Under the pieces are notes generated by a model that saw nothing but the letters and a program-made list of their open reading frames with translations, searched no databases and was not told where the DNA came from. This document shows, piece after piece, positions 1 to 62,260 of a DNA stretch of 64,000 bases. The translations under genes and the position numbers were made by a program. The stretch covers positions 63,434 through 127,433 of the forward strand of contig JAZKIQ010000004.1 of NCBI GenBank assembly GCA_040384765.1, read 5' to 3'. The first letter of the stretch is position 1; each line of letters opens with the position of its first letter. This stretch comes from Patescibacteria group bacterium. GTDB lineage: Bacteria > Patescibacteriota > Minisyncoccia > Phycocordibacterales > JBBUBG01.

Positions 1-3000
1 GGTCTTAGACTGCTCCACTTCACGAGTGCGCTCGAGCACTTTTGCCTGAAGGTTTTTGTTGAGGTCGGAAAGGGTTACCGAAAGGCGGTCGAGCTCTTCT
101 TTTTGCTCCTCACCTTTGATGATGTTCCTGATGAAGAAGATGCCGACGGTGGTGAATGCGGTAAAAATAAGCGCTTTGCTGATAAAGCCAGAGGTCAGCT
201 CGCCATGGGCAAAAATATTCCCGAAAAGGAGAAATACGATAAAAAAGATCCCAAGCTCAGCGGTGATTACTTTTAGGGCGATCACCTCCTCTCGGGCGAT
301 AGCATAGGCACTCATGCCTAGCCAGCCGATCATTGCTATTGGGCCAAGCCAGTACGTATTGGTGTATCCAGCATAGGTATAAAAAAGACTGACCATCACC
401 GGAATTGTGCCGAGGAGAGCAGTCCAAAAGACGCCTTTCCTGCGCTCTGTCGGCCCAAGAATGGTTGCTTTGTCTAGGTGCTGGTGCATATAGGCAAAGC
501 CGATCGTAAGGAGGACGAGAAAATGTATTCGCGCAAGAAGACCAAACTCTCCGTAGGTCCAGTATCGATCAAGCACGTTTGGCCCCCCAAACCCTGCACC
601 CGCAATGATGAGGTTGCCCTGATAGTAGAGATATCCAAACCCAAGCTCGAGAAGTGCGATAAAGCTCGCTATTTTTGTGCGAGGGAGGGGCCGCTCTACC
701 GCAGCAAGGGCAAAGAAGAGGAACGCCACGGCCACGCCATTGCCTACAAAGCTCGCCGTTTTTGCCCAGAAAAGGAGTGAGGCGTCGGTGCTCGAAGCGT
801 ACAGAAAGCTTGTTGCGAGTGCCCAGGCCCCAGCCATGAATACCAAAAATGAGTACCGCATAGCACCTTCGCGGGTCGAGTGTCGATAGAGATAGAATGA
901 AAAGAAAAAGAGGGTGAGGGCTGTCGCGAGGTTTATGAGTGCGTAGCTGTTGAGGTTTGCCCAGAGAGAGGTCGTGATGAGGAATGCACCCATGCCGCTC
1001 ACAAAAATATTTACAAACAAGATCAGAATAAGCACTGCAGCAAGGAGAGTGGTGACAATGAAGCGCACGGAAAGGAACTGGTAGCGCTTGATTGCATAGG
1101 AGTTAAAGCCGATCCATCCCAAAATCGCGGTGGGCGCAAACCAGTAGAGAGAGGTGTTGCCGCCGTGCTCGATTAAGGGATAGATAATCACGAGCCCGGG
1201 TAGTGCCCCTAGGAGCGACCCCCACAGAATAAATAAGCGAGCTTTCTTATTTTCACCAACAAGATATCCCAGTTTTTTCCATAGGAGGTATGCTGCAGCC
1301 ACAAAAAAACCGATGAAATGTATCTCTTCAAAAAGCCGAAGTGGGCCGTATGTCCAGGTGCGGTCGAGAACTCCTGCGCTCCCTAGGTGCGCAGATGCTA
1401 CGAGAAGGTCAGTGCCGATGAATAGATAGCCAACAATGAGCTCAAGAAAGAGGAGAGCGAGTGCTACTTTTCGCGGCATCCGGTTTCCCTCGGGGATAGA
1501 GAAGGTGTAGGCAAAAAAGGCGAGTGCAATACCACTGCCTATAAAATGGTTGAGCCGAATGATGAGGGTGAGAAAAGCATCGGTCCCGGCAGCGTAGTAG
1601 AGCCCGATACCAAATGCCCAGAGGCCCGCAACCCATACGATGCGAGCGTAGGCCCGAGAGACCGATGCTTTGCTTCCGAGGTAGATGAGTGTTCCGAAGA
1701 TCGCGAATATAAGAGCGGTTGTCCAGTTGAGCATCGTATAGCCAGTGACAGGACCAAAAAGTGAAGAGAGATCTTCTTTGGCGAATGAGCCGAGGGTGTC
1801 GCCGATGCCAAACGGAAGGAATATGTTCACAAACAGGACAATCACCATCAAGAGAAGCGCAAGCTCTGCAGCAATAAGCTTGAGGTTGAGTGCTTTGTAT
1901 TTGACGATAACGTAGGAGGTCAGGAGCACCCATGAAAGTGCAAACAGAGGCCCGAGCCAGCTAAATCTGAACAGACCAAAGAGGGGGAGTACCACCGCTA
2001 CCGTTACTCCGATGAGTGAGCCGAGGAGCGTTGCGGCAAAGATGATGAAAAGCTGGTGGCGAGTGGCGGGGTCCGCGAGGCTTCGAAACTTTTTCCAAAG
2101 CAGGGTAAGGCCTCCAATAAAAAACGGCGCGAAGTTGAGGTGAAACAAAAATCCAAGCGGGCCAAACTGCCAGCCGTTTTCAACGGTGTTACCGAGGACA
2201 ATAAAAGTGTCGCGGATTATGAGCGGGGTAAAGAGATAGAGAGGTAGAAGGATCGCTTCGAGGGACACGAGAAGGGGGAACACCCAGCGCTTCGGCTTCT
2301 CTTCGCTCGGGTAGAGCATCGCAAAGTACAGAAAGATGGTCCCCACAGCGCCGCCGACGTAATGGTTGAAACGGTTGAGAAAAAGGAGAATATCATGGTC
2401 GATAAGCATGTAGTAGAGCCCCATGCCAAACCCCCAGAGTGCAAGCATTGTCGCGAGGAGGGCGTAGGCTCTATTCGATGAGCGGCGAGAGCCGGTGGCA
2501 AGCACGATTGCAAAACTCGCGAAAAGGATGCCTGCGAGCCAGTTCACCATGCTTTCAATGCCGGGCGTGACAATGCTTGCGCGAAAGTGGGCTATAGAGG
2601 CGCCTATTCCCTCGATTGTTGGGAGACCGAGGGTTACATCACCAAGAAACGAGCCGGAGATACCTGATCCCGAAAACAGGATATTGAGGAAAAGGATCAC
2701 GATCATTGCAAACACGGCTATTTCAGCAACGACGTGTCGCACGTCGAGCGCCCGATACCGCACGATCGTGTAGTAGGTGAGTGCTACCCAGACAAGTGCC
2801 GAAAATGGGGCGTAGCGTGCAAAATGGAAATAGCCAAAAGCTGGCAGTACCATCGCAATGACTATGGCGAGGAGGGCGCCCCATACGATAGCCCAGAGCA
2901 GTACGCGAAGTACACTCTTTGTCTCAGGGGAGCTTGCGGTGCGATATTTTTTCCAGAGCAGATAGATGCCTGCTGCAAAGGGGATAAGAAAATGCGCATA

Positions 3001-3450
3001 AAAGAGCGCTCCGAGCGACCCCAAGTGCCAGCCGTACTGGAGACGGTCGACGCTTACGATAAAGAGGTCGTGGATAATCGTGTTTGTACCGAGGTAGAGA
3101 TACGCAAGCACGACCTCGGCGCCCATGAGCCAGTACAGCTGTTTTCGGGGAGGAGCTACCTCTTCGGGGAACAGCACGCCAAAATAGTAAAAGAGGGGAC
3201 CTACTGAGGCCGCAGCAAAATGGTTGAGCCTGTTAAAAAAAAGAAGGAGCTCTCCCGTGTCTCCGACAAATGCGCTGCTCGTGGCTATCCAGTAGAAGGT
3301 GCCTTGAGAAAGTGACCAGAGAGAGCAGGTGAATGCGAGGATCGAGTAAGCGCGGGTGGAAGGCTTTTTTGATCCGACATGGAGGAGCACCGCGAACAGT
3401 CCAAAAATAAGAGCAGAGAACCAGCTTATGGCCGATGTCGCATTGAGCAC
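1..3450 (-). CDS. Giant polytopic membrane protein (partial, >1150 aa; start GTG 3450 or ATG 3492, 3' end runs off window at position 1). Four tandem ~200-aa 7-TM sensor-like modules followed by a coiled-coil linker; possible sensor kinase or cyclase input domain
   Basis: Own minus-strand translation: one frame is open across all 3450 nt. It is absent from the ORF track because no stop codon lies in the window. Motifs LLWKK(Y/F)R, FxNR(L/F)NHF and Y(Y/W)..GP recur every ~200 aa. The C-terminal part reads ...GEEQKEELDRLSVTLSDLNKNLQAKVLERTREVEQSK. Confidence 0.7.
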   Translation of the reverse strand, partial: MLNATSAISWFSALIFGLFAVLLHVGSKKPSTRAYSILAFTCSLWSLSQGTFYWIATSSAFVGDTGELLLFFNRLNHFAAASVGPLFYYFGVLFPEEVAPPRKQLYWLMGAEVVLAYLYLGTNTIIHDLFIVSVDRLQYGWHLGSLGALFYAHFLIPFAAGIYLLWKKYRTASSPETKSVLRVLLWAIVWGALLAIVIAMVLPAFGYFHFARYAPFSALVWVALTYYTIVRYRALDVRHVVAEIAVFAMIVILFLNILFSGSGISGSFLGDVTLGLPTIEGIGASIAHFRASIVTPGIESMVNWLAGILFASFAIVLATGSRRSSNRAYALLATMLALWGFGMGLYYMLIDHDILLFLNRFNHYVGGAVGTIFLYFAMLYPSEEKPKRWVFPLLVSLEAILLPLYLFTPLIIRDTFIVLGNTVENGWQFGPLGFLFHLNFAPFFIGGLTLLWKKFRSLADPATRHQLFIIFAATLLGSLIGVTVAVVLPLFGLFRFSWLGPLFALSWVLLTSYVIVKYKALNLKLIAAELALLLMVIVLFVNIFLPFGIGDTLGSFAKEDLSSLFGPVTGYTMLNWTTALIFAIFGTLIYLGSKASVSRAYARIVWVAGLWAFGIGLYYAAGTDAFLTLIIRLNHFIGSGIALAFFAYTFSIPEGNRMPRKVALALLFLELIVGYLFIGTDLLVASAHLGSAGVLDRTWTYGPLRLFEEIHFIGFFVAAAYLLWKKLGYLVGENKKARLFILWGSLLGALPGLVIIYPLIEHGGNTSLYWFAPTAILGWIGFNSYAIKRYQFLSVRFIVTTLLAAVLILILFVNIFVSGMGAFLITTSLWANLNSYALINLATALTLFFFSFYLYRHSTREGAMRYSFLVFMAGAWALATSFLYASSTDASLLFWAKTASFVGNGVAVAFLFFALAAVERPLPRTKIASFIALLELGFGYLYYQGNLIIAGAGFGGPNVLDRYWTYGEFGLLARIHFLVLLTIGFAYMHQHLDKATILGPTERRKGVFWTALLGTIPVMVSLFYTYAGYTNTYWLGPIAMIGWLGMSAYAIAREEVIALKVITAELGIFFIVFLLFGNIFAHGELTSGFISKALIFTAFTTVGIFFIRNIIKGEEQKEELDRLSVTLSDLNKNLQAKVLERTREVEQSKT

Positions 3451-3478
3451 AGTGGCTTTATTATAGCGTGAAAGTGAA

Positions 3479-3520
3479 AAGAGAATCCCCATTATTCTTG
3501 CGAATAATGGGGATTCTCTT
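3479..3520 (-). terminator. Rho-independent terminator downstream of the HU gene; abuts the start of the giant membrane-protein gene
   Basis: Perfect hairpin agagaatccccattattc-ttgc-gaataatggggattctct; U-rich on the minus-strand side. Confidence 0.6.
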
Positions 3521-3541
3521 GTAGTGGTGAAAACGAAACTG

Positions 3542-3820
3542 CTAGGACATCTTTACTGCATCCTTGAGCGCTTTTGCTGCACGAAACTTCGGTGCTTTCA
3601 TCGAAGGCACCTGCACGGTCTCGCCGGTGCGTGGATTGCGCGCCGTGCGAGCTGCTCGGGTCTTTACCGAGAAGATACCAAGACCTGCTATCGAAACCTC
3701 ATCTCCTTTCTTGAGGCCATCTACGATAGCCCAGAGCATCGTGTCTACTGCCTCTTCAGCGGCAACTTTTGTCCCGCCAATCTTCGAGTGAACCGCATCG
3801 ATAATATTTTGCTTGTTCAT
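3542..3820 (-). CDS. hup: Nucleoid-associated DNA-binding protein HU
   Basis: 92-aa ORF MNKQNIIDAV...GLGIFSVKTRAARTARNPRTGETVQVPS, the typical HU/IHF fold signature. Confidence 0.9.
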   Translation of the reverse strand: MNKQNIIDAVHSKIGGTKVAAEEAVDTMLWAIVDGLKKGDEVSIAGLGIFSVKTRAARTARNPRTGETVQVPSMKAPKFRAAKALKDAVKMS

Positions 3821-12123: not shown

Positions 12124-12238
12124 GCCTCTTCTGGATGTGTCTTTTTGGAACACGGATATTTTTCTGGTGAAAAATTCCTCGAGCTCGCTTCGGCCAAGCT
12201 CGCTAGTTTCCAAAAAGACACATCCAGAAGAGGTCTTG
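12121..12238. repeat. Family-1 element copy 1: conserved ~75-nt core clamped by a locus-specific 17-21 bp inverted repeat
   Basis: Core TTTTTGGAACACGGATATTTTTCTGGTGAAAAATTCCTCGAGCTCGCTTCGGCCAAGCTCGCTAGTTTCCAAAAA. Arms cctcttctggatgtgtc / gacacatccagaagagg. Confidence 0.8.
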
Positions 12239-25978: not shown

Positions 25979-26088
25979 ATAAAACAGTATCTTTTTTGGA
26001 ACACGGATATTTTTCTGGTGAAAAATTCCTCGAGCTCGCTTCGATCAAGCTCGCTAGTTTCCAAAAAAGATACTGTTTTATTTATTTG
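25972..26088. repeat. Family-1 element copy 2; the left arm contains the rnhA stop codon
   Basis: 20-bp perfect arms caaataaataaaacagtatc / gatactgttttatttatttg around the conserved core (nearly identical to copy 1). Confidence 0.8.
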
Positions 26089-29865: not shown

Positions 29866-29900
29866 AAAAAGAAACACCGCCACTTTGTGGCGGTGTTTCT
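29866..29900. terminator. Bidirectional terminator hairpin
   Basis: aaagaaacaccgccac-tttg-tggcggtgtttcttt. Confidence 0.7.
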
Positions 29901-29912
29901 TTAGATTTTCTT

Positions 29913-30010
29913 ATTGCCTAGTGAAGTGAGAGTCGCGAAAGTGTACTCACTTTCATGACCGAACGAATGACGGCAAAAAAGTGAGCACACTTTATGCTGC
30001 GACTGGCTCT
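29913..30010 (+). repeat. Family-2 element copy A (5' module); its 3' part encodes the last codons and stop of rpmB on the opposite strand
   Basis: ATTGCCTAGTGAAGTGAGAGTCGCGAAAGTGTACTCACTTTCATGACCGAACGAATGACGGCAAAAAAGTGAG. Confidence 0.75.
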
Positions 30011-32820: not shown

Positions 32821-32931
32821 GGCGCTCGCCACAGTTCCTTTTTGGAACACGGATAATTTTTTGCTAAAAATTTCCTCGAGCTCGCGCCGGTCGCGCTCCC
32901 TAGTTTCCAAAAAGGAACTGTGGCGAGCGCC
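32821..32931. repeat. Family-1 element copy 3, inside the str operon between rpsG and fusA
   Basis: 18-bp perfect arms ggcgctcgccacagttcc / ggaactgtggcgagcgcc; core variant ...GGATAATTTTTTGCTAAAAATTTCC... Confidence 0.8.
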
Positions 32932-35170: not shown

Positions 35171-35251
35171 TGATGTGGACACTGAAGGCCTATTCTAAAA
35201 GAAAATCCGCGGCGGCCCGAAGGGTCGCCGCGGATTGCGTGGAGAAGTCGA

Positions 35252-35695
35252 TCACCGCTTTCGTCCCTTTCGGAAATAGATGGGAAGGGGAGAGATGATC
35301 TGGAGGAGTTGTCCTTTTTGGTGAGAGTTCCACCACTTAGCCACCCGCGCATGCACCGCGCGGTACTGGGCAAGCTCACGTCGGGTGATCGCTTCCGTTT
35401 TGAACTTCTGCCGATCGCGGAGAGATTCTTCTCGGGCAACCCCCATCATCTGCTCGAAATCGCCCGACCTCGGGTCGACGGTTTCGCGCATGATGTTCGT
35501 GCGAAGGTCGCCGATTATTTCGGTAATGTAGTCTCGATCTTGCTGCTCTTCGATGTCAGGAAAGTCTCTAAGCGGTCGACCTTCCTCGTCGTGAGACGCT
35601 ATGGTGACATCGTACTCGGGCCGATTGTGCGTCGGTGCACTGAGGAGCAGTGTGGGCAGTACACACAGGGCGAATGACATGAACAGAAACTTCAT
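35252..35695 (-). CDS. Secreted hypothetical protein (start MKFLFMSF; SD aaaggaga)
   Basis: Signal peptide MKFLFMSFALCVLPTLLLSA. Confidence 0.55.
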   Translation of the reverse strand: MKFLFMSFALCVLPTLLLSAPTHNRPEYDVTIASHDEEGRPLRDFPDIEEQQDRDYITEIIGDLRTNIMRETVDPRSGDFEQMMGVAREESLRDRQKFKTEAITRRELAQYRAVHARVAKWWNSHQKGQLLQIISPLPIYFRKGRKR

Positions 35696-35808
35696 GGGCG
35701 CATCTCCTTTGATGGGTCGCTCTACGTCTGCTGTAGATATACCACGGGAGTGTCGCCTATAAAAACACAAAAAACGTCCAAGGCGACTTTTGTGATACAT
35801 TTAGACTC

Positions 35809-36495
35809 ATGAATAGAAATACTCTTGGGGTGCTTTCGATTGTGCTCCTCGCAATAGTAGCGTTTGTGTCGTATCAGCCGCCTACGCCAGTGACGATCGA
35901 GGAGGTCGCTAAAGAACAGCCTGCTACCACAACCGCAAAAACCGTCACAGCAACGGCCGTCTCCGAGGTAAAGACAGATCCCTACGAGGGGTGGAACACC
36001 TACAAAAACGATACGTACGGTTTTTCGCTTCGGTATCCTGCTGATTGGGTAGTCGAGGCTATCGATGGTTCATATGCTCCACCACCATCTCCTACGTTCC
36101 AAGTGATCAGTATTTTCCCGCGCAAATATCGTGGCAGCGCGCATCCCGAGCAGGCGATCATCATAAGCCCTGATATTCAAAGCCCTGTTATTGATAGCGC
36201 TCGAGGTGGTGTTGATTCACTTCAGTACCGCTTTTCAATCAATGACCAAGAGCTTTTTCAGGAGTTTCGAACTGAGTTTGGGCCAGAGGGATACCAGCTT
36301 TCAACAGATGTGACGAAAGTGAACGGTCTGCCAGTTCTGATGGTGTATTCAACTCGGTTTCAGGTCCCAGCAGGACTGTTCTTTGCGCTGGAAGAAGCTC
36401 AGTTTGTAAAAGTAGAAAATGTGCTGCCAAGGGCGCCTGAAACGCATGTACAGAAGCTAAACGAAAAGATTCTTCTTTCTCTGAAAACGTTCTAG
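35809..36495 (+). CDS. Membrane-anchored hypothetical protein (228 aa)
   Basis: TM LGVLSIVLLAIVAFV. Confidence 0.5.
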   Translation: MNRNTLGVLSIVLLAIVAFVSYQPPTPVTIEEVAKEQPATTTAKTVTATAVSEVKTDPYEGWNTYKNDTYGFSLRYPADWVVEAIDGSYAPPPSPTFQVISIFPRKYRGSAHPEQAIIISPDIQSPVIDSARGGVDSLQYRFSINDQELFQEFRTEFGPEGYQLSTDVTKVNGLPVLMVYSTRFQVPAGLFFALEEAQFVKVENVLPRAPETHVQKLNEKILLSLKTF

Positions 36496-36518
36496 GTAGT
36501 TGTGCTACTGTTAGTTGT

Positions 36519-36947
36519 ATGCGACGCCTCAACCCGCTTTGGGCAGTGCTTATTATGTTCGCCTCTGCGATGGTGCCTATCGCGCTTTCGTTTGCGGCAG
36601 GGAGCTGGTGTTTTAAGAATGCAACTGACGCGAGTGGGTGCGATGCCTTCGCTTTTATTGCAATTCCGTTTATCGTACTGGGACTCTTTGGAGGACTGCT
36701 CCTTTTTTACCTCACCTTTTTCCTTCGCGTAATCTATCGCAAGCAAAGGGTGCTGGGCCTCTCGACGAGAGCCTATGCGCTCGTCGTGCTGGCGCGTTTT
36801 TGTGCGGTAGCTATTCCCGCCGTAGTACTGCTCGAGCAGTACTCACCAGGAGCGCTTTTTGGAGAAACACTTCTCTCGTATCTGCCAGGACTTTTTATCT
36901 TCTGGTTTGGTTCACTTTTGTACTTAAACAAGAAGAAGGCACTCTAG
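36519..36947 (+). CDS. Polytopic membrane hypothetical protein (142 aa)
   Basis: Four hydrophobic segments. Confidence 0.5.
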   Translation: MRRLNPLWAVLIMFASAMVPIALSFAAGSWCFKNATDASGCDAFAFIAIPFIVLGLFGGLLLFYLTFFLRVIYRKQRVLGLSTRAYALVVLARFCAVAIPAVVLLEQYSPGALFGETLLSYLPGLFIFWFGSLLYLNKKKAL

Positions 36948-37001
36948 AGATATTCCGCTCTTTTTGTGATACCCTCGAGCGAGAAGGGGGTGAGGAGAGA
37001 G

Positions 37002-37214
37002 ATGACTGAGCGAGCTGATGCTACTGATCAGTGTCATGTCACTTCGTGCGAGAATCGCGTGCCTGAGAACGATGCCGCGTTCTATTGCGACACGTGCCAG
37101 GAGGCGGTATGCAAGGAGCATGTTCGCCCTGCACCGACCGCGAAAGGCGACAGGCCTCGCAACAGGTGCACCCAGTGTCAGAAGGCAGGTATCCAGGTTA
37201 TGCGTGTCGCGTAG
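37002..37214 (+). CDS. Small Cys-rich zinc-ribbon-like protein (70 aa)
   Basis: CHVTSC...CDTC...CKEH...CTQC; SD ggtgaggagag. Confidence 0.45.
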   Translation: MTERADATDQCHVTSCENRVPENDAAFYCDTCQEAVCKEHVRPAPTAKGDRPRNRCTQCQKAGIQVMRVA

Positions 37215-37416
37215 CTTTGAGCCTGCGATCCATGACTCCGCGCGCCTACCCGGTGCGCGGTTCTCTTTTGTATAAGTGGCATAATCCACTTTTTGCCGTC
37301 ACTCGTTCGGGTATGAAAAGTGCTCTTTTCATGCCTCTCACTTCGCTAGGCAATAAAAAATGAAAGCCGTCATCTCCATCTTGCAAGGCAAGGGGAGCAT
37401 GACGGCTTCGAAGGTC

Positions 37417-37737
37417 TCAGGCGGCGCTACTGTTCCAGTAGCGGTCCGTCCGAGGGGGAAGGTACTTGAGGTAGACGAGGAGCCTGATGCGGGCATCTTC
37501 ACCAGCGGCTTCGCCAAGTTCTTCGGCGAAAGCGTACACGAGCCGGCGCTGTTCAGCGCGGCCGAGCGGCGCCCTGCTCCGGTGTCGCTCACTTTCCCGA
37601 TTCACTTTTTGAGTCGGGAATGCTGGGCGAAGAACACGACGGGGATCGGCGAGTCCCTCTGCGCCGCAGTTTGCACACCGGTCACTTATCATGCCGGTAG
37701 AGCATGAGCCGCACTCTTGGCATACGGGTTTTGCCAT
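37417..37737 (-). CDS. Small zinc-ribbon protein (106 aa; start MAKPVCQECGSC)
   Basis: CQECGSC...CANCG; SD gaaggaggtg; consensus promoter upstream. Confidence 0.5.
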   Translation of the reverse strand: MAKPVCQECGSCSTGMISDRCANCGAEGLADPRRVLRPAFPTQKVNRESERHRSRAPLGRAEQRRLVYAFAEELGEAAGEDARIRLLVYLKYLPPRTDRYWNSSAA

Positions 37738-37764
37738 GACGCACACCTCCTTCAGGAGAAGATT

Positions 37765-37793
37765 ATAGCACTTTTGGAGCAAAAGTCAATCTG
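37765..37793 (-). promoter_or_regulatory. Consensus sigma70 promoter TTGACT-16-TATAAT (minus strand)
   Basis: rc reads ttgacttttgctccaaaagtgctataat. Confidence 0.65.
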
Positions 37794-37828
37794 TTCTGTA
37801 CTCACTTTTTTGTGACCTTTGGGTGGGG

Positions 37829-37857
37829 TTGACTCGAGGGTACTCTTTCTGTAGTAT
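37829..37857 (+). promoter_or_regulatory. Sigma70 promoter TTGACT-17-TAGTAT for tuf
   Basis: ttgactcgagggtactctttctgtagtat. Confidence 0.6.
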
Positions 37858-37955
37858 TGTCCTACGCACGTTTCAAGGCGTTTTTTTGTTTGAATTAACA
37901 CTAACTGCTTCCTCCTGGCACGCTCGATGCGGTCAGTGAAGCTCATACCCAACAT

Positions 37956-44356: not shown

Positions 44357-44478
44357 TGATGATAGTTCTGCTGATTGAAGCAGGAATGTAGTGTATTCCT
44401 CTGGAAAATCAATGCAAGCACGACAGTATATGAAGAGAGCCGTTTCCCAAGGGAAACGGCTCGTCCGGGCTTGCGCTG

Positions 44479-44691
44479 CTACTGCGTGTGGCTTGGGGCG
44501 CCGGGCACCCCTCCGATACGCAGCATAATTTTTTGGGAGGCTGCCCTCCTGCTTGCGCGTGCCTCCTCGGCCAGTTTCTCCTCGAGGCGGCTCGGGCCGT
44601 GGAGTGCTGCGACTATAACCACAGCAATTAGTCCCAAGATTACGCCGTACTCGATGAGTCCCTGCTTCTCTTCGCTGTACTTTTGGAACAT
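44479..44691 (-). CDS. flp: Flp/Fap-family pilin (type IVb/Tad pilin)
   Basis: EKQGLIEYGVILGLIAVVIVAAL, the Flp motif; SD ggggtga. Confidence 0.7.
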   Translation of the reverse strand: MFQKYSEEKQGLIEYGVILGLIAVVIVAALHGPSRLEEKLAEEARASRRAASQKIMLRIGGVPGAPSHTQ

Positions 44692-44765
44692 TACATCACC
44701 CCTTTTAGGTGTTCCGTATCTTTATATAATACCTTATTTTTCCTGATCTGTCTAGATGGCGTCTA

Positions 44766-44930
44766 TTGCCTAGTGAAGTGAGCGTCGCGAAAATGTACTC
44801 ACTTTCATGACCGAACGAACGACGGCAAAAAAGGTGAGTACCCCGTCAGCTTTGCTGCGGACCCCAGTGTCAGTACTCTCACGCTGGGGTCCGAGGGCTT
44901 GCCCCGGGGTTAATACCCTTTATTTTTGCC
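44766..44930 (+). repeat. Family-2 element copy B (full length); its 3' module encodes the last ~14 codons and stop of the pterin dehydratase gene on the opposite strand
   Basis: 5' module ATTGCCTAGTGAAGTGAGCGTCGCGAAAATGTACTCACTTTCATGACCGAACGAACGACGGCAAAAAAGGTGAG; 3' module TACCCCG-hairpin-hairpin-GGGCTTGCCCCGGGGTTAATACCCTTTATT. Confidence 0.8.
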
Positions 44931-45238
44931 GCAAGAATGAAGTCGTTTTCAGAAAGACCACCAATTGCATGGGTCGAGAGCTCGAGTCGAACAATGTTGT
45001 ACGAGATCCAGATGTCAGGGTGGTGGCCTTCCTCTTCCGCAATTTTGGCAACAGCATTCACAAAATGCATTGATTGTTTAAAATCTTCGAATTTCCACTC
45101 CTTCATGAGCTTCTTTGCTCCATCGATTTTCCAGCTTGGGTCGCTGAGCTCGGAGAGAAGGGGAGCAATCTCGCTTTCCGTGAGTGGTGGCACGCCACCT
45201 TCGCACGGCACGCACTTTTTTTCGGCAAGCATGGTCAT
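44879..45238 (-). CDS. phhB: Pterin-4a-carbinolamine dehydratase (PCD/DCoH)
   Basis: FVNAVAKIAEEEGHHPDIWISYNIVRLELSTHAIGGLSENDFILAAKI. Confidence 0.8.
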   Translation of the reverse strand: MTMLAEKKCVPCEGGVPPLTESEIAPLLSELSDPSWKIDGAKKLMKEWKFEDFKQSMHFVNAVAKIAEEEGHHPDIWISYNIVRLELSTHAIGGLSENDFILAAKIKGINPGASPRTPA

Positions 45239-45291
45239 AACAAAATAGATGAAAAGTGTTAGTATCGCTAGTATATAACCTCATCATCGCT

Positions 45292-45855
45292 ATGGATATT
45301 TTCAAGAAAGGGTGGGTCTGGGTGATTGTCGCAGTTTTGGTGCTTGGTATCTGGGCTGTATCGTCCTACAACAGCTTCGTCTCGCTTTCCGAGGGCGCGG
45401 ATACGCAGTGGGCACAGGTGGAGAATCAGTTCCAGCGCCGTTTTGACCTCGTGCCAAACCTCGTAGCTTCCGTAAAGGGTTCGCTTGCTCAAGAGCAGAA
45501 AGTGTTTGGTGACATTGCCGATGCTCGTACTCGGTATGCTGGGGCAGCATCAGTTGACGATAAGGTGGCGGCTGCAAACCAGCTCGAAGGCTCACTCGCG
45601 CGGCTTCTTGTGATTGTTGAAAGCTATCCCCAGCTCGCTTCGCAGGCAAATGTGCGTGCACTCATGGATGAGCTCGCTGGTACCGAAAACCGTATTGCTG
45701 TGGAGCGCGGCCGTTTCAATGAAAAGGTGCAGGCGTACAATATCGCGGTAAAGCGCTTTCCGGGAGTGGTCACCGCATCACTTTTTGGATATAAGGAGCG
45801 AGCGCTGTTTAAGGCAAACGAAAATGCCGACACTGCTCCGGCGGTTTCTCTCTAG
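45292..45855 (+). CDS. lemA: LemA-family membrane protein (start MDIFKKGWVWV)
   Basis: TM plus LemA helical domain; classically paired with a TPM protein. Confidence 0.85.
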   Translation: MDIFKKGWVWVIVAVLVLGIWAVSSYNSFVSLSEGADTQWAQVENQFQRRFDLVPNLVASVKGSLAQEQKVFGDIADARTRYAGAASVDDKVAAANQLEGSLARLLVIVESYPQLASQANVRALMDELAGTENRIAVERGRFNEKVQAYNIAVKRFPGVVTASLFGYKERALFKANENADTAPAVSL

Positions 45856-46717
45856 ATCGGCTGCTCTTACACTCACGCTCCTTCTCGGGAGTGCGAGTGT
45901 GTATGCGGCAGTAGCTCTTCCTCCAGAGGGGTTTGTAAACGACCGTGCAAATCTTCTCTCGGAAGCCTATCGAGAGGCGCTTGAAACCGAGCTCAGAGAG
46001 TACGAGCAAATCTCAGGGAATGAGATCGCGCTTCTTGCCGTGCCCACTAGTCCCGAAGGCTCGATAGAGGAGTTCGCCGTGGAGGTGTTTGAAGAGTGGG
46101 GGATTGGAAAGAGCGACGCGGACAACGGGCTTTTGCTCGTGATTGCAAAGGAGGATCGAAAGATTCGAATAGAGGTAGGATACGGCCTCGAGTCGTATAT
46201 TACCGATGGCCGAGCGGGTAGAATTATTCGAGACGATATGGCGCCCCTCTTCAAGGAAGGAGAGTACGACGAAGGGGTGGCGGCGGCAATCTTGAGGATC
46301 AAAGAGCATCTCTCGGGTGCGCCTGCTGGAGCAGCTGAAGAGAGTTCAGGAGATGAGTACGCGCCGTTTATTGTTCTCGGGTTCTTCTTTGTGCAGTTCG
46401 TGTTTGGTGGATTGCTTCATGTGATGGCGAAGAGTAAAAGTGTTCTTCTTGGTGGAGGTTTGGGTATTGTCCTTGGTCTCGGGATAGGTTTTCTTGTAGG
46501 TCTTGGGTCGGTAGGGCTTATTTTCGCCCTCGCATTCTTTGGGGGCATCGGCACACTTTTTGACTGGCTTGTCTCGAACTATGCTTCAGAGCGCGTACGG
46601 AAGGGAGAATCGCCCTTTTGGGGTTATGGTGGTGGAGGAAGCAGCTCGGGAGATAGTGGATTTGGGGGCTTTGGAGGGGGTTTTTCGGGGGGAGGGGGAG
46701 CTTCAGGGGGCTGGTAA
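45824..46717 (+). CDS. TPM-domain (YgcG-like) protein with C-terminal TM and Gly-rich tail
   Basis: Signal peptide; [20 protein letters not shown]; tail [18 protein letters not shown]. Confidence 0.85.
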
Positions 46718-46728
46718 AAGCCCTTGGT

Positions 46729-60831: not shown

Positions 60832-61041
60832 CGGGACGTGGTGTAACGGTAACATTCACGAGATGGGGTCGAATCTTTTGTCGGGCTATAGTGTAACGGT
60901 AACATTCACGATTCGGGTTCGTGAGACTCTGGGTTCAAATCCCAGTAGCCCGACAAAAGATTTGACGGGAATGCCCCAAGCGCATTCCCCGGATTTTCAG
61001 CAGAAAATGTGAGACTCCGGGTTCAAATCCCGGCGTCCCGA
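60832..61041 (+). tRNA. Split or nested tRNA-Pro(UGG)-like gene: 5' half 60832-60868, 3' half 61007-61041, interrupted by 138 nt that contain the tRNA-Pro(CGG) gene
   Basis: Acceptor CGGGACG pairs perfectly with CGTCCCG; T arm CCGGG-TTCAAAT-CCCGG (compensatory relative to the inner tRNA); anticodon loop GATGGGG. Confidence 0.4.
60882..60953 (+). tRNA. tRNA-Pro (anticodon CGG)
   Basis: Hand-folded: acceptor CGGGCTA/TAGCCCG; D stem GTGT/ACAT; anticodon stem CACGA/TCGTG; loop TTCGGGT; T arm CTGGG-TTCAAAT-CCCAG. Confidence 0.8.
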
Positions 61042-61159
61042 CTGAGCAAGGCGAAGGAGCGGAGGAGAAAATGCCCTGCGGCATTTTTGTTCGGTATTTG
61101 AAGGACTTTTCAATGTCGAGCAATGCGAGACGTGAAAAGTACCCGCGACGGTAGTCGAA

Positions 61160-61970: not shown

Positions 61971-62101
61971 AACGTCTTCTCTCACCGATCGACAGTTCGA
62001 AGAAACCCCGACGTGTCCTACGGGGTTTCTTTGCTAAAAGAGAGGTAAACCCTCTCTTTTAGCAAAGAAGTTATGCATAAAAACCGTTTGCAGATTACTT
62101 G

Positions 62102-62260
62102 ATTGCCTAGCGTAGTGAGAGAAATGAAAAGAGTACTTTTTATTTCCGAACGAGCGACGGCAAAAAAGGGCAGATACCCCGCCGCTTTGCGGCGCCCCGT
62201 ACAAACAGTACACTGGTTGTACGGGGCGGGGGCTTGTCCCGGGGTTAATACCCTTTATTC
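62102..62260 (+). repeat. Family-2 element copy C, immediately upstream of the cupredoxin gene
   Basis: GATTGCCTAGCGTAGTGAGAG...CGAACGAGCGACGGCAAAAAAGGGCAGATACCCCG-hairpins-GGGCTTGTCCCGGGGTTAATACCCTTTATT. Confidence 0.75.

Follow-up and report, generated by a model that had tools for sequence, protein, structure and literature searches.

A lineage-restricted structured repeat in a Patescibacteria genome, probably mobile as a folded single strand, that has replaced the end of a pterin dehydratase gene

What is the short repeat that lies across the end of the pterin-4a-carbinolamine dehydratase gene in this Patescibacteria genome, and has it handed codons of its own to the genes that it touches? 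A preliminary description of the locus saw here a structured repeat with compensatory stem changes (family 2), resembling a mobile or palindromic element with perhaps IS200/IS605-like ends rather than a riboswitch, and credited it with the C-terminal tails of both the dehydratase and rpmB. We address both parts of the question in the 64-kb stretch of DNA that was analysed (hereafter the window), whose gene content, including ribosomal operons, type IV pilus genes and LemA/TPM, is typical of Patescibacteria/Paceibacteria, and in the syntenic loci of four relatives retrieved by an EF-G search (L062, L063, L064 and L065, at 93%, 91%, 86% and 81% protein identity, respectively).

Copies, boundaries and distribution

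Three copies had been described and all three lie where they were placed, but the window holds four. The 23-nt core of the 5′ module, CCGAACGANNGACGGCAAAAAAG, is matched four times with at most three mismatches where 0.01 matches are expected, and it was this core pattern search that picked up the additional copy, D, on the minus strand with two mismatches. A covariance model of the 5′ domain, searched with filters off, gives the four window copies 88-90 bits and the next best match less than 14 bits; a relaxed pattern for the rod domain reads GCCTAGNGNAGNGAG-N(24-36)-CCGAACGANNGACGG. The 3′ module, CCCGGGGTTAATACCCTTTATT, occurs twice in the window as against zero expected, and a profile search confines it to copies B and C. 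The element ends of all copies were set from empty sites and the common architecture, and the earlier bounds of A, B and C are redrawn as listed in Table 1. Together with a copy in L063, the elements fall into two size classes (81/81/82 nt and 157/155 nt) that share the same MFE architecture (5/5 copies).

Copy A, previously taken for a 5′ module only, is instead an entire short form with a terminal hairpin of its own, like copy D and the L063 copy, and the short copies are complete elements and not truncations. The stretch 29995-30010, formerly counted as copy A sequence, is rpmB coding sequence that is conserved in the L063 ortholog; the likeness between the A flank TGCTGCGAC and the B junction TGCTGCGGAC was for that reason rejected as element sequence, and the similarity to copy B is coincidental. 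Copies of the four-way junction of the long forms as a solo, independent element were found neither in the window nor in the relatives.

Table 1. Positions of the family 2 copies, their parts and the gene features that adjoin them
Feature	Coordinates	Strand	Description	Basis or remark
Copy A	29914-29994	+	short form, 81 nt	R1 covariance model, 90 bits
Copy A, rod domain	29914-29976			MFE fold
Copy A, terminal hairpin	29978-29993		AAAGTG-AGCA-CACTTT	MFE fold
Copy A, terminal A	29994			MFE fold
Copy D	37353-37273	-	short form, 81 nt; terminal hairpin AAGTGG-ATTATG-CCACTT	R1, 88.1 bits
Copy B	44766-44922	+	long form, 157 nt	
Copy B, rod	44766-44828			
Copy B, terminal hairpin arms	44830-44834, 44917-44921			
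Copy B, four-way junction insert	44840-44910			
Copy C	62103-62257	+	long form, 155 nt	
Copy C, rod	62103-62163			
Copy C, terminal hairpin arms	62165-62170, 62251-62256			
Copy C, four-way junction	62176-62245			
L063 copy	4269-4350 of L063		short form, 82 nt; terminal hairpin AAGGTTT-TAAT-AAACCTT	related metagenomic genome
Element bounds			starts TTGCCTAG.., ends ..YTTA	
rpmB stop codon	29992-29994	-	TAA, complement of the element's terminal TTA	same junction in L063
Pterin-4a-carbinolamine dehydratase gene	44879-45238	-		
Element-derived C-terminal codons	44879-44920	-	KGINPGASPRTPA and TGA stop	copy B, reverse complement reading
Relic of the original dehydratase ending	44752-44764	-	..A GAC GCC ATC TAG, (I)DAI and stop	aligns with L063 coding end AACGCCATTCAAAGATAG
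Predicted empty-site junction at the dehydratase gene			GGCGTCTA joined to TTTTTGCC	

The repeat is lineage-restricted, with a patchy and narrow distribution: four copies lie in the 64 kb of the window and one in 19.5 kb of L063, and there is none in the available sequence of L062 (22 kb), L064 (15.7 kb) and L065 (22 kb), ~60 kb in total. At four-fold degenerate sites the window is 47-49% identical to L062 or L063, and thus neutral sequence between these genomes is essentially randomised. Matches to a 21-nt core, CCGAACGANNGACGGCAAAAA, in a genome and metagenome scan were rejected, being single, without the 5′ motif and scoring 17-19 bits against 86-90 for real copies; that pattern is too strict and would miss the L063 copy, which reads GACGGTAGAAA. 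Viral contigs and phage genomes yielded nothing real, and a six-frame pseudo-protein query for ORFs across the other copies returned no score, in a search where a short exact match cannot reach significance. Rfam 15 holds no match at the gathering threshold (best permissive matches 12-17 bits, E >0.2). The earlier view of a structured, mobile-like repeat and not a riboswitch is supported. ARAGORN and the Rfam tRNA model likewise make no tRNA call on the repeat, finding only the tRNA-Pro at 60882-60954, and the four-way junction is not tRNA-like, with its 13-bp arm and without a T-loop sequence.

Other features of the window were recorded in passing. At 60832-61042 one tRNA gene is apparently nested in another, and only the tRNA-Pro(CGG) at 60882-60954 is called there: a tRNA-Pro(UGG) is split between 60832-60871 and 61010-61042 and is called by ARAGORN once the ~138 nt in between (60872-61009) are removed. 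This insert interrupts the anticodon stem on its 3′ strand and not at the usual intron position; within it the inverted repeat AATCTTTTG/CAAAAGATT flanks the entire tRNA-Pro(CGG), and there is one more hairpin. A separate 75-nt repeat, family 1, occupies 12142-12216, 25993-26067 and 32839-32913 (partial match at 45615-45642), is closed by TTTTTGGAAC...GTTTCCAAAAA and has internal hairpins that differ between copies and stay paired; all of its copies are intergenic, and a short-word BLAST found none in relatives L062-L065. At the window start, 1-3552 of the minus strand form one open frame of >1184 codons that runs off the edge, which is why the first 4 kb seem to lack called ORFs.

A common two-domain fold

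Each of the five copies, in its own MFE fold, adopts the same two-domain architecture, in which domain 1 is a rod and domain 2 a terminal hairpin, the structured strand being the + strand in A, B and C. The rod is closed by a helix, P1 (TTGCC/GGCAA), that reads CTGCC/GGTAG in L063, with both sides changed and a G-U pair, and the 2-bp helix that follows P1 also covaries, with T-A in three copies (A, B, L063) and C-G in the other two (C, D). Further along the rod, two internal loops have invariant bases, 5′-GA-3′ opposite 5′-GA-3′, which makes them candidates for tandem sheared G-A pairs. The rod hairpin of 10-12 bp ends in an (A/U)GTAC tip, and its arms differ between types while their pairing is kept. 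One linker base separates the rod from the terminal hairpin and the last paired base lies 1 nt from the element's 3′ end; the predicted fold sets the two element ends side by side.

In copies B and C a stem AAAGG(G)/CCCTTT, homologous to the terminal stem of the short forms, encloses the 3′ module, within which ACCCCG/CGGGGT closes three hairpins into a four-way junction, the tip of the longest hairpin again being CAGTAC. In C this common junction is itself the MFE topology, and in B it lies 0.4 kcal/mol above the MFE; the folding z-scores of the predicted folds are -4.7 and -6.5. The hairpins that had been quoted as differing in sequence and retaining their pairing (cagctttgctg versus gccgctttgcggc, and accccag..ctggggt versus ccccgtacaa..ttgtacgggg) are present and paired in these folds, and the conserved CAGTAC loop and the ACCCCG/CGGGGT pairing are found there as well.

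Pair counts and shuffles on the five sequences agree with the claim of compensatory stem changes. In the 5′ domain 94% of cells are paired, versus 39-47% in slid registers; both sides are changed in 6 of 20 pairs, and the observed covariation score is reached by none of 500 shuffles. The covariation is real and, resting as it does on five sequences, two of them nearly identical, and on about two hairpin types, is supportive rather than decisive. To call it RNA-like was, however, to over-read it, since compensatory changes are also usual in the hairpins of mobile single-stranded DNA, for example in REPINs (PMC3116915). As to the strand, alignment A4 holds six G-T wobble cells versus three C-A cells, and the GA/AG loops can be read on the + strand only; the wobble excess and the GA loops together point to the strand that is + in A, B and C as the structured one.

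Two remodelled gene ends

For the dehydratase, the proposal that copy B supplies the C-terminal codons stands, with the last 13 codons and the stop derived from the element. Homologs of the protein are mostly 107-112 aa long and end in ..SENDFILAAKI(D/N)xx(x). The L063 ortholog, which has no element, ends in AAKINAIQR and a stop, and what follows it is the homolog of the left flank of copy B. When the window flanks of copy B are joined they read GCG GCA AAA ATA GAC GCC ATC TAG, that is AAKIDAI and a stop, the family-consensus ending, and the relic of this ending, GACGCCATCTAG, is still intact just past the element. From the L063 empty site and the displaced relic it follows that copy B replaced the C-terminus of the dehydratase with its own peptide and stop, its insertion point lying four codons (the stop and three sense codons) short of the gene end. 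Between the new stop and the next gene, copy B is the sole structure. A 2.3-kb Logan contig is identical to 44460-46720. The 'GINPAS' tail of homolog P0005 was considered as element-like and rejected, its DNA being unrelated.

For rpmB the same claim went too far. Only the stop codon lies inside copy A, the preceding ..VAA codons being common to the L063 ortholog, and even without an element the left-flank TTA would provide an identical stop. Copy A adjoins the rpmB stop on one side and the rpmB terminator hairpin (29868-29902) on the other, and the L063 copy occupies the same place between stop and terminator hairpin; neither L062 nor L064 has an element here, and their rpmB stop runs straight into the terminator T-run. 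The L063 hairpin at this site resembles that of window copy C, at another locus (89% identity), more than that of window copy A (46%). Given this C-like hairpin at rpmB and four-fold sites close to saturation (47%), the copies are not simply vertical orthologs.

The two remaining window copies lie outside coding sequence, D right after the terminator (37238-37260) that follows a small zinc-ribbon ORF on the + strand, and C in an intergenic region, 20 nt ahead of an ATG (62278). Orientation with respect to the neighbouring genes is mixed, A, B and D being antisense and C sense. Upstream of the left junction there is an AGAT, at a distance of 7-8 nt in A (29903-29906), B (44754-44757) and C (62093-62096) and of 17-20 nt in D and L063. 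In B it belongs to the pre-insertion sequence; if not due to chance, it is a target preference and not part of the element. An upstream TAGAT was rejected as a -10 box, being part of the displaced dehydratase stop region in B, and the promoter scan finds nothing consistent. In the fusA-tuf interval (35200-37900) the window carries lineage-specific ORFs, among them a PsbP-like protein, a membrane protein and small zinc-ribbon ORFs, that have no homolog in the syntenic loci of the four relatives, where the interval is different or only ~560 nt long; in L062 (13688-15037) and L065 (12285-16740) it contains large ORFs (449, 382 and 1042 aa) with no Pfam match on record.

Mobility and its alternatives

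We propose that family 2 is probably a lineage-restricted, non-autonomous mobile DNA repeat that has no terminal inverted repeats (TIR) and acts as a folded single strand, in the manner of PATE or REPIN elements. The earlier impression of a mobile or palindromic element is borne out by clean empty sites, by insertion into a coding sequence and by the rods of A and B, whose 95% identity amid unrelated flanks implies recent copying. Counting against mobility, the conservation of invariant loops despite saturated synonymous sites would also fit a structured RNA under host selection.

The junctions speak to the type of mobility. The left flanks are CTTA, TCTA, TTGA, TTTA and TTTA and the right ends TTTA (three copies) and CTTA (two), which amounts to only five junction pairs. 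The two junctions of a copy share just 1-4 identical bases, centred on TA, and the L063 empty site leaves a boundary ambiguity of 1-4 nt; copy C, with TTGA on the left, breaks the TA rule. A fixed target duplication is not found, as TA fails in C (GA versus TA) and AT fails in L063, and there are no terminal inverted repeats, the 5′ end TTGCCTAGTG not being complementary to ..CACTTTA or ..ACCCTTTA. A classical MITE was rejected on these two grounds, inverted termini and fixed-length target duplication both being absent. Neither the 64-kb window nor the precomputed Pfam annotation of the relatives' loci shows a transposase or recombinase gene, and reading of the sequences revealed no IS608-style guide/target complementarity beside the hairpin foot. 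GC skew is positive across the window, which makes the + strand the lagging-strand template, and the structured strand lies on that template in three of the four copies. The absence of TIR, the short junction match and the T-rich target fit a single-strand 'peel and paste' process better than they fit classical MITEs.

In such a process a trans-acting enzyme encoded elsewhere would recognise the folded single strand and would cut and join at a short, T-rich left-hand site, ..T(T/C/G)(T/G)A, with the element ending in YTTA, much as in the peel and paste of IS200/IS605 ends or of RAYT/REPIN elements. Insertions fall in T-tracts beside terminators and stop codons, T-rich targets accounting for the proximity to terminator T-runs and TAA stops. 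Single-strand recognition, the class of the enzyme and current activity of the element are here inferred.

Elements of this PATE- or REPIN-like kind are well known in bacteria, and the suggested kinship with IS200/IS605 ends offers the best available analogy. Like palindrome-associated transposable elements (PATEs), the ends-only IS200/IS605 derivatives moved by the Y1 HUH transposase TnpA, family 2 would be non-autonomous; it lacks TIR and a clear target duplication, appears to place its hairpins close to the two ends of one active strand, carries similar short A/T-rich tetranucleotides at the left flank and right end, and has its structured strand on the lagging-strand template in three of four copies. 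One motif recurs in the loops of both end hairpins, a pattern also reported in IS605 ends (PMC7290912), and the long forms B and C have two long hairpins with AGTAC tips. The short forms, however, have one long hairpin and one of 6-7 bp, without a second long one, and further differences set family 2 apart from PATEs. No tnpA, tnpB or parental IS is seen in the window or the relatives' loci; the right cleavage point would lie at the hairpin foot and not ~10 nt beyond; the target is degenerate (TTTA, CTTA, TCTA, TTGA); and the closing helix of the left domain, the GA/AG loops and the optional four-way junction have not been described for IS200/IS605 ends.

With REP/REPIN elements (RAYT, TnpA-REP) the repeat shares its nature as a short, extragenic, structured sequence near gene 3′ ends and terminators and its hairpins with frequent compensatory changes, compensated hairpins being common in REPINs, for which recognition of a single-strand 'clover' has been proposed (PMC3116915). 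It differs in being built from two unlike domains and not as a symmetric doublet of inverted REP units, and in showing no GTAG-type REP head, no RAYT gene in the window and a copy density that is low so far. Rickettsia palindromic elements (RPEs) are likewise structured repeats, of ~100-150 bp and from a reduced genome, that can enter coding sequence and add peptide (PMC10969869), but they are mostly in-frame and internal and affect many genes, whereas here one of five copies has replaced a C-terminus and brought its own stop. BOX, SPRITE and ERIC elements, modular repeats of pneumococci and enterobacteria, resemble family 2 in their modularity with optional modules, stable folds, terminator-like features and intergenic clustering (PMC10969869) and are unrelated to it in sequence; the inverted-repeat ends and target duplications of ERIC and of classical MITEs (PMC10969869) are both absent.

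The conserved loops might instead be those of a small structured RNA family encoded in multiple copies and transcribed in the + orientation; we regard this as unlikely. In such an RNA the GA rod would be a protein-binding or tertiary-contact module, the self-complementary GUAC tips would form kissing loops, and the junction would be an optional accessory domain. Helices that vary with compensation around invariant internal loops, G-U pairs and GA/AG loops that favour one strand, strongly negative folding z-scores and conserved blocks kept between genomes with saturated synonymous sites are all to be expected of it, and B and C end in a weak hairpin and T-run, which the terminator scan flags as a 5-bp GGGGT-TAAT-ACCCT. 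That scan leaves the short forms unflagged, however, and these have no U-tract after their terminal hairpin; the promoter scan found no conserved or consistent promoter in the copies; and at rpmB a bidirectional terminator ends only 10-11 nt before the start of A and of the L063 copy on the structured strand, leaving no transcript entry and no room for a promoter. The absence from ~60 kb of close relatives and the lack of an Rfam match also weigh against an RNA family, and the empty sites, the coding-sequence insertion and the A/B identity point to transposition.

Read on the bottom strand, the element might serve as a host 3′-end module, its UAA stop, terminal hairpin and U run (CACUUUUUUGCC) acting as a terminator or 3′-UTR stabiliser for converging genes, comparable to proposals made for REP and SPRITE elements. 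We consider this improbable. It is true that in A, B, D and L063 the gene upstream (rpmB, the dehydratase, the zinc-ribbon ORF and rpmB, respectively) has the bottom strand as its sense strand and that the element there follows or overlaps the stop of that gene. After the reverse-complemented terminal hairpin comes TTTTTTGCC (A, B and C) or TTTTTGCC (D), and the terminator scan flags the minus strand of C; the lack of any other structure behind the dehydratase stop would also suit such a role. Yet rpmB and the zinc-ribbon ORF retain their own strong terminators beside the element, the short-form hairpin is weak (6 bp, 2 G-C pairs), no gene converges on copy C, the U-run of L063 is interrupted, and both the wobble/mismatch asymmetry and the GA loops speak for the opposite strand. 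Moreover, a 3′-end role accounts for retention of the element and not for its origin or spread.

About as doubtful is a bolder reading, in which the GA-rich rod, with or without the four-way junction, would be the functional nucleic-acid machine of an undescribed class of TIR-less Patescibacteria mobile elements, a mobile structured RNA or single-stranded DNA that joins in its own excision and integration or recruits a host enzyme without a dedicated transposase. Integron-like or other site-specific recombination sites, attC-like and placed at gene 3′ ends, are very improbable, for although the elements lie at or over stop codons, conserve structure while the central sequence varies and fold strand-specifically, this context largely refutes them: the flanking genes are syntenic housekeeping genes and not cassettes, direct reading finds no RYYYAAC/GTTRRRY core pair, the window has no integrase, and copy B interrupts a coding sequence.

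We found no description in the literature of mobile repeats in Patescibacteria (CPR bacteria) with their small genomes. If family 2 proves to be only a low-copy PATE-like element, the finding would be useful and not surprising; its architecture, its host phylum and the clean replacement of a C-terminus make it worth recording all the same. Its unusual build, without inverted termini, with ends drawn together by the fold, invariant GA/AG loops and an optional junction, offers a tractable case for an enzyme that would act on a folded single strand. Most directly, family 2 is a concrete, bounded example, with clean empty sites, of how gene ends are remodelled in Patescibacteria: the dehydratase has received a new C-terminus and stop and rpmB has had its stop regenerated by the element, and odd C-terminal extensions annotated in Patescibacteria genomes can accordingly be repeat-derived.
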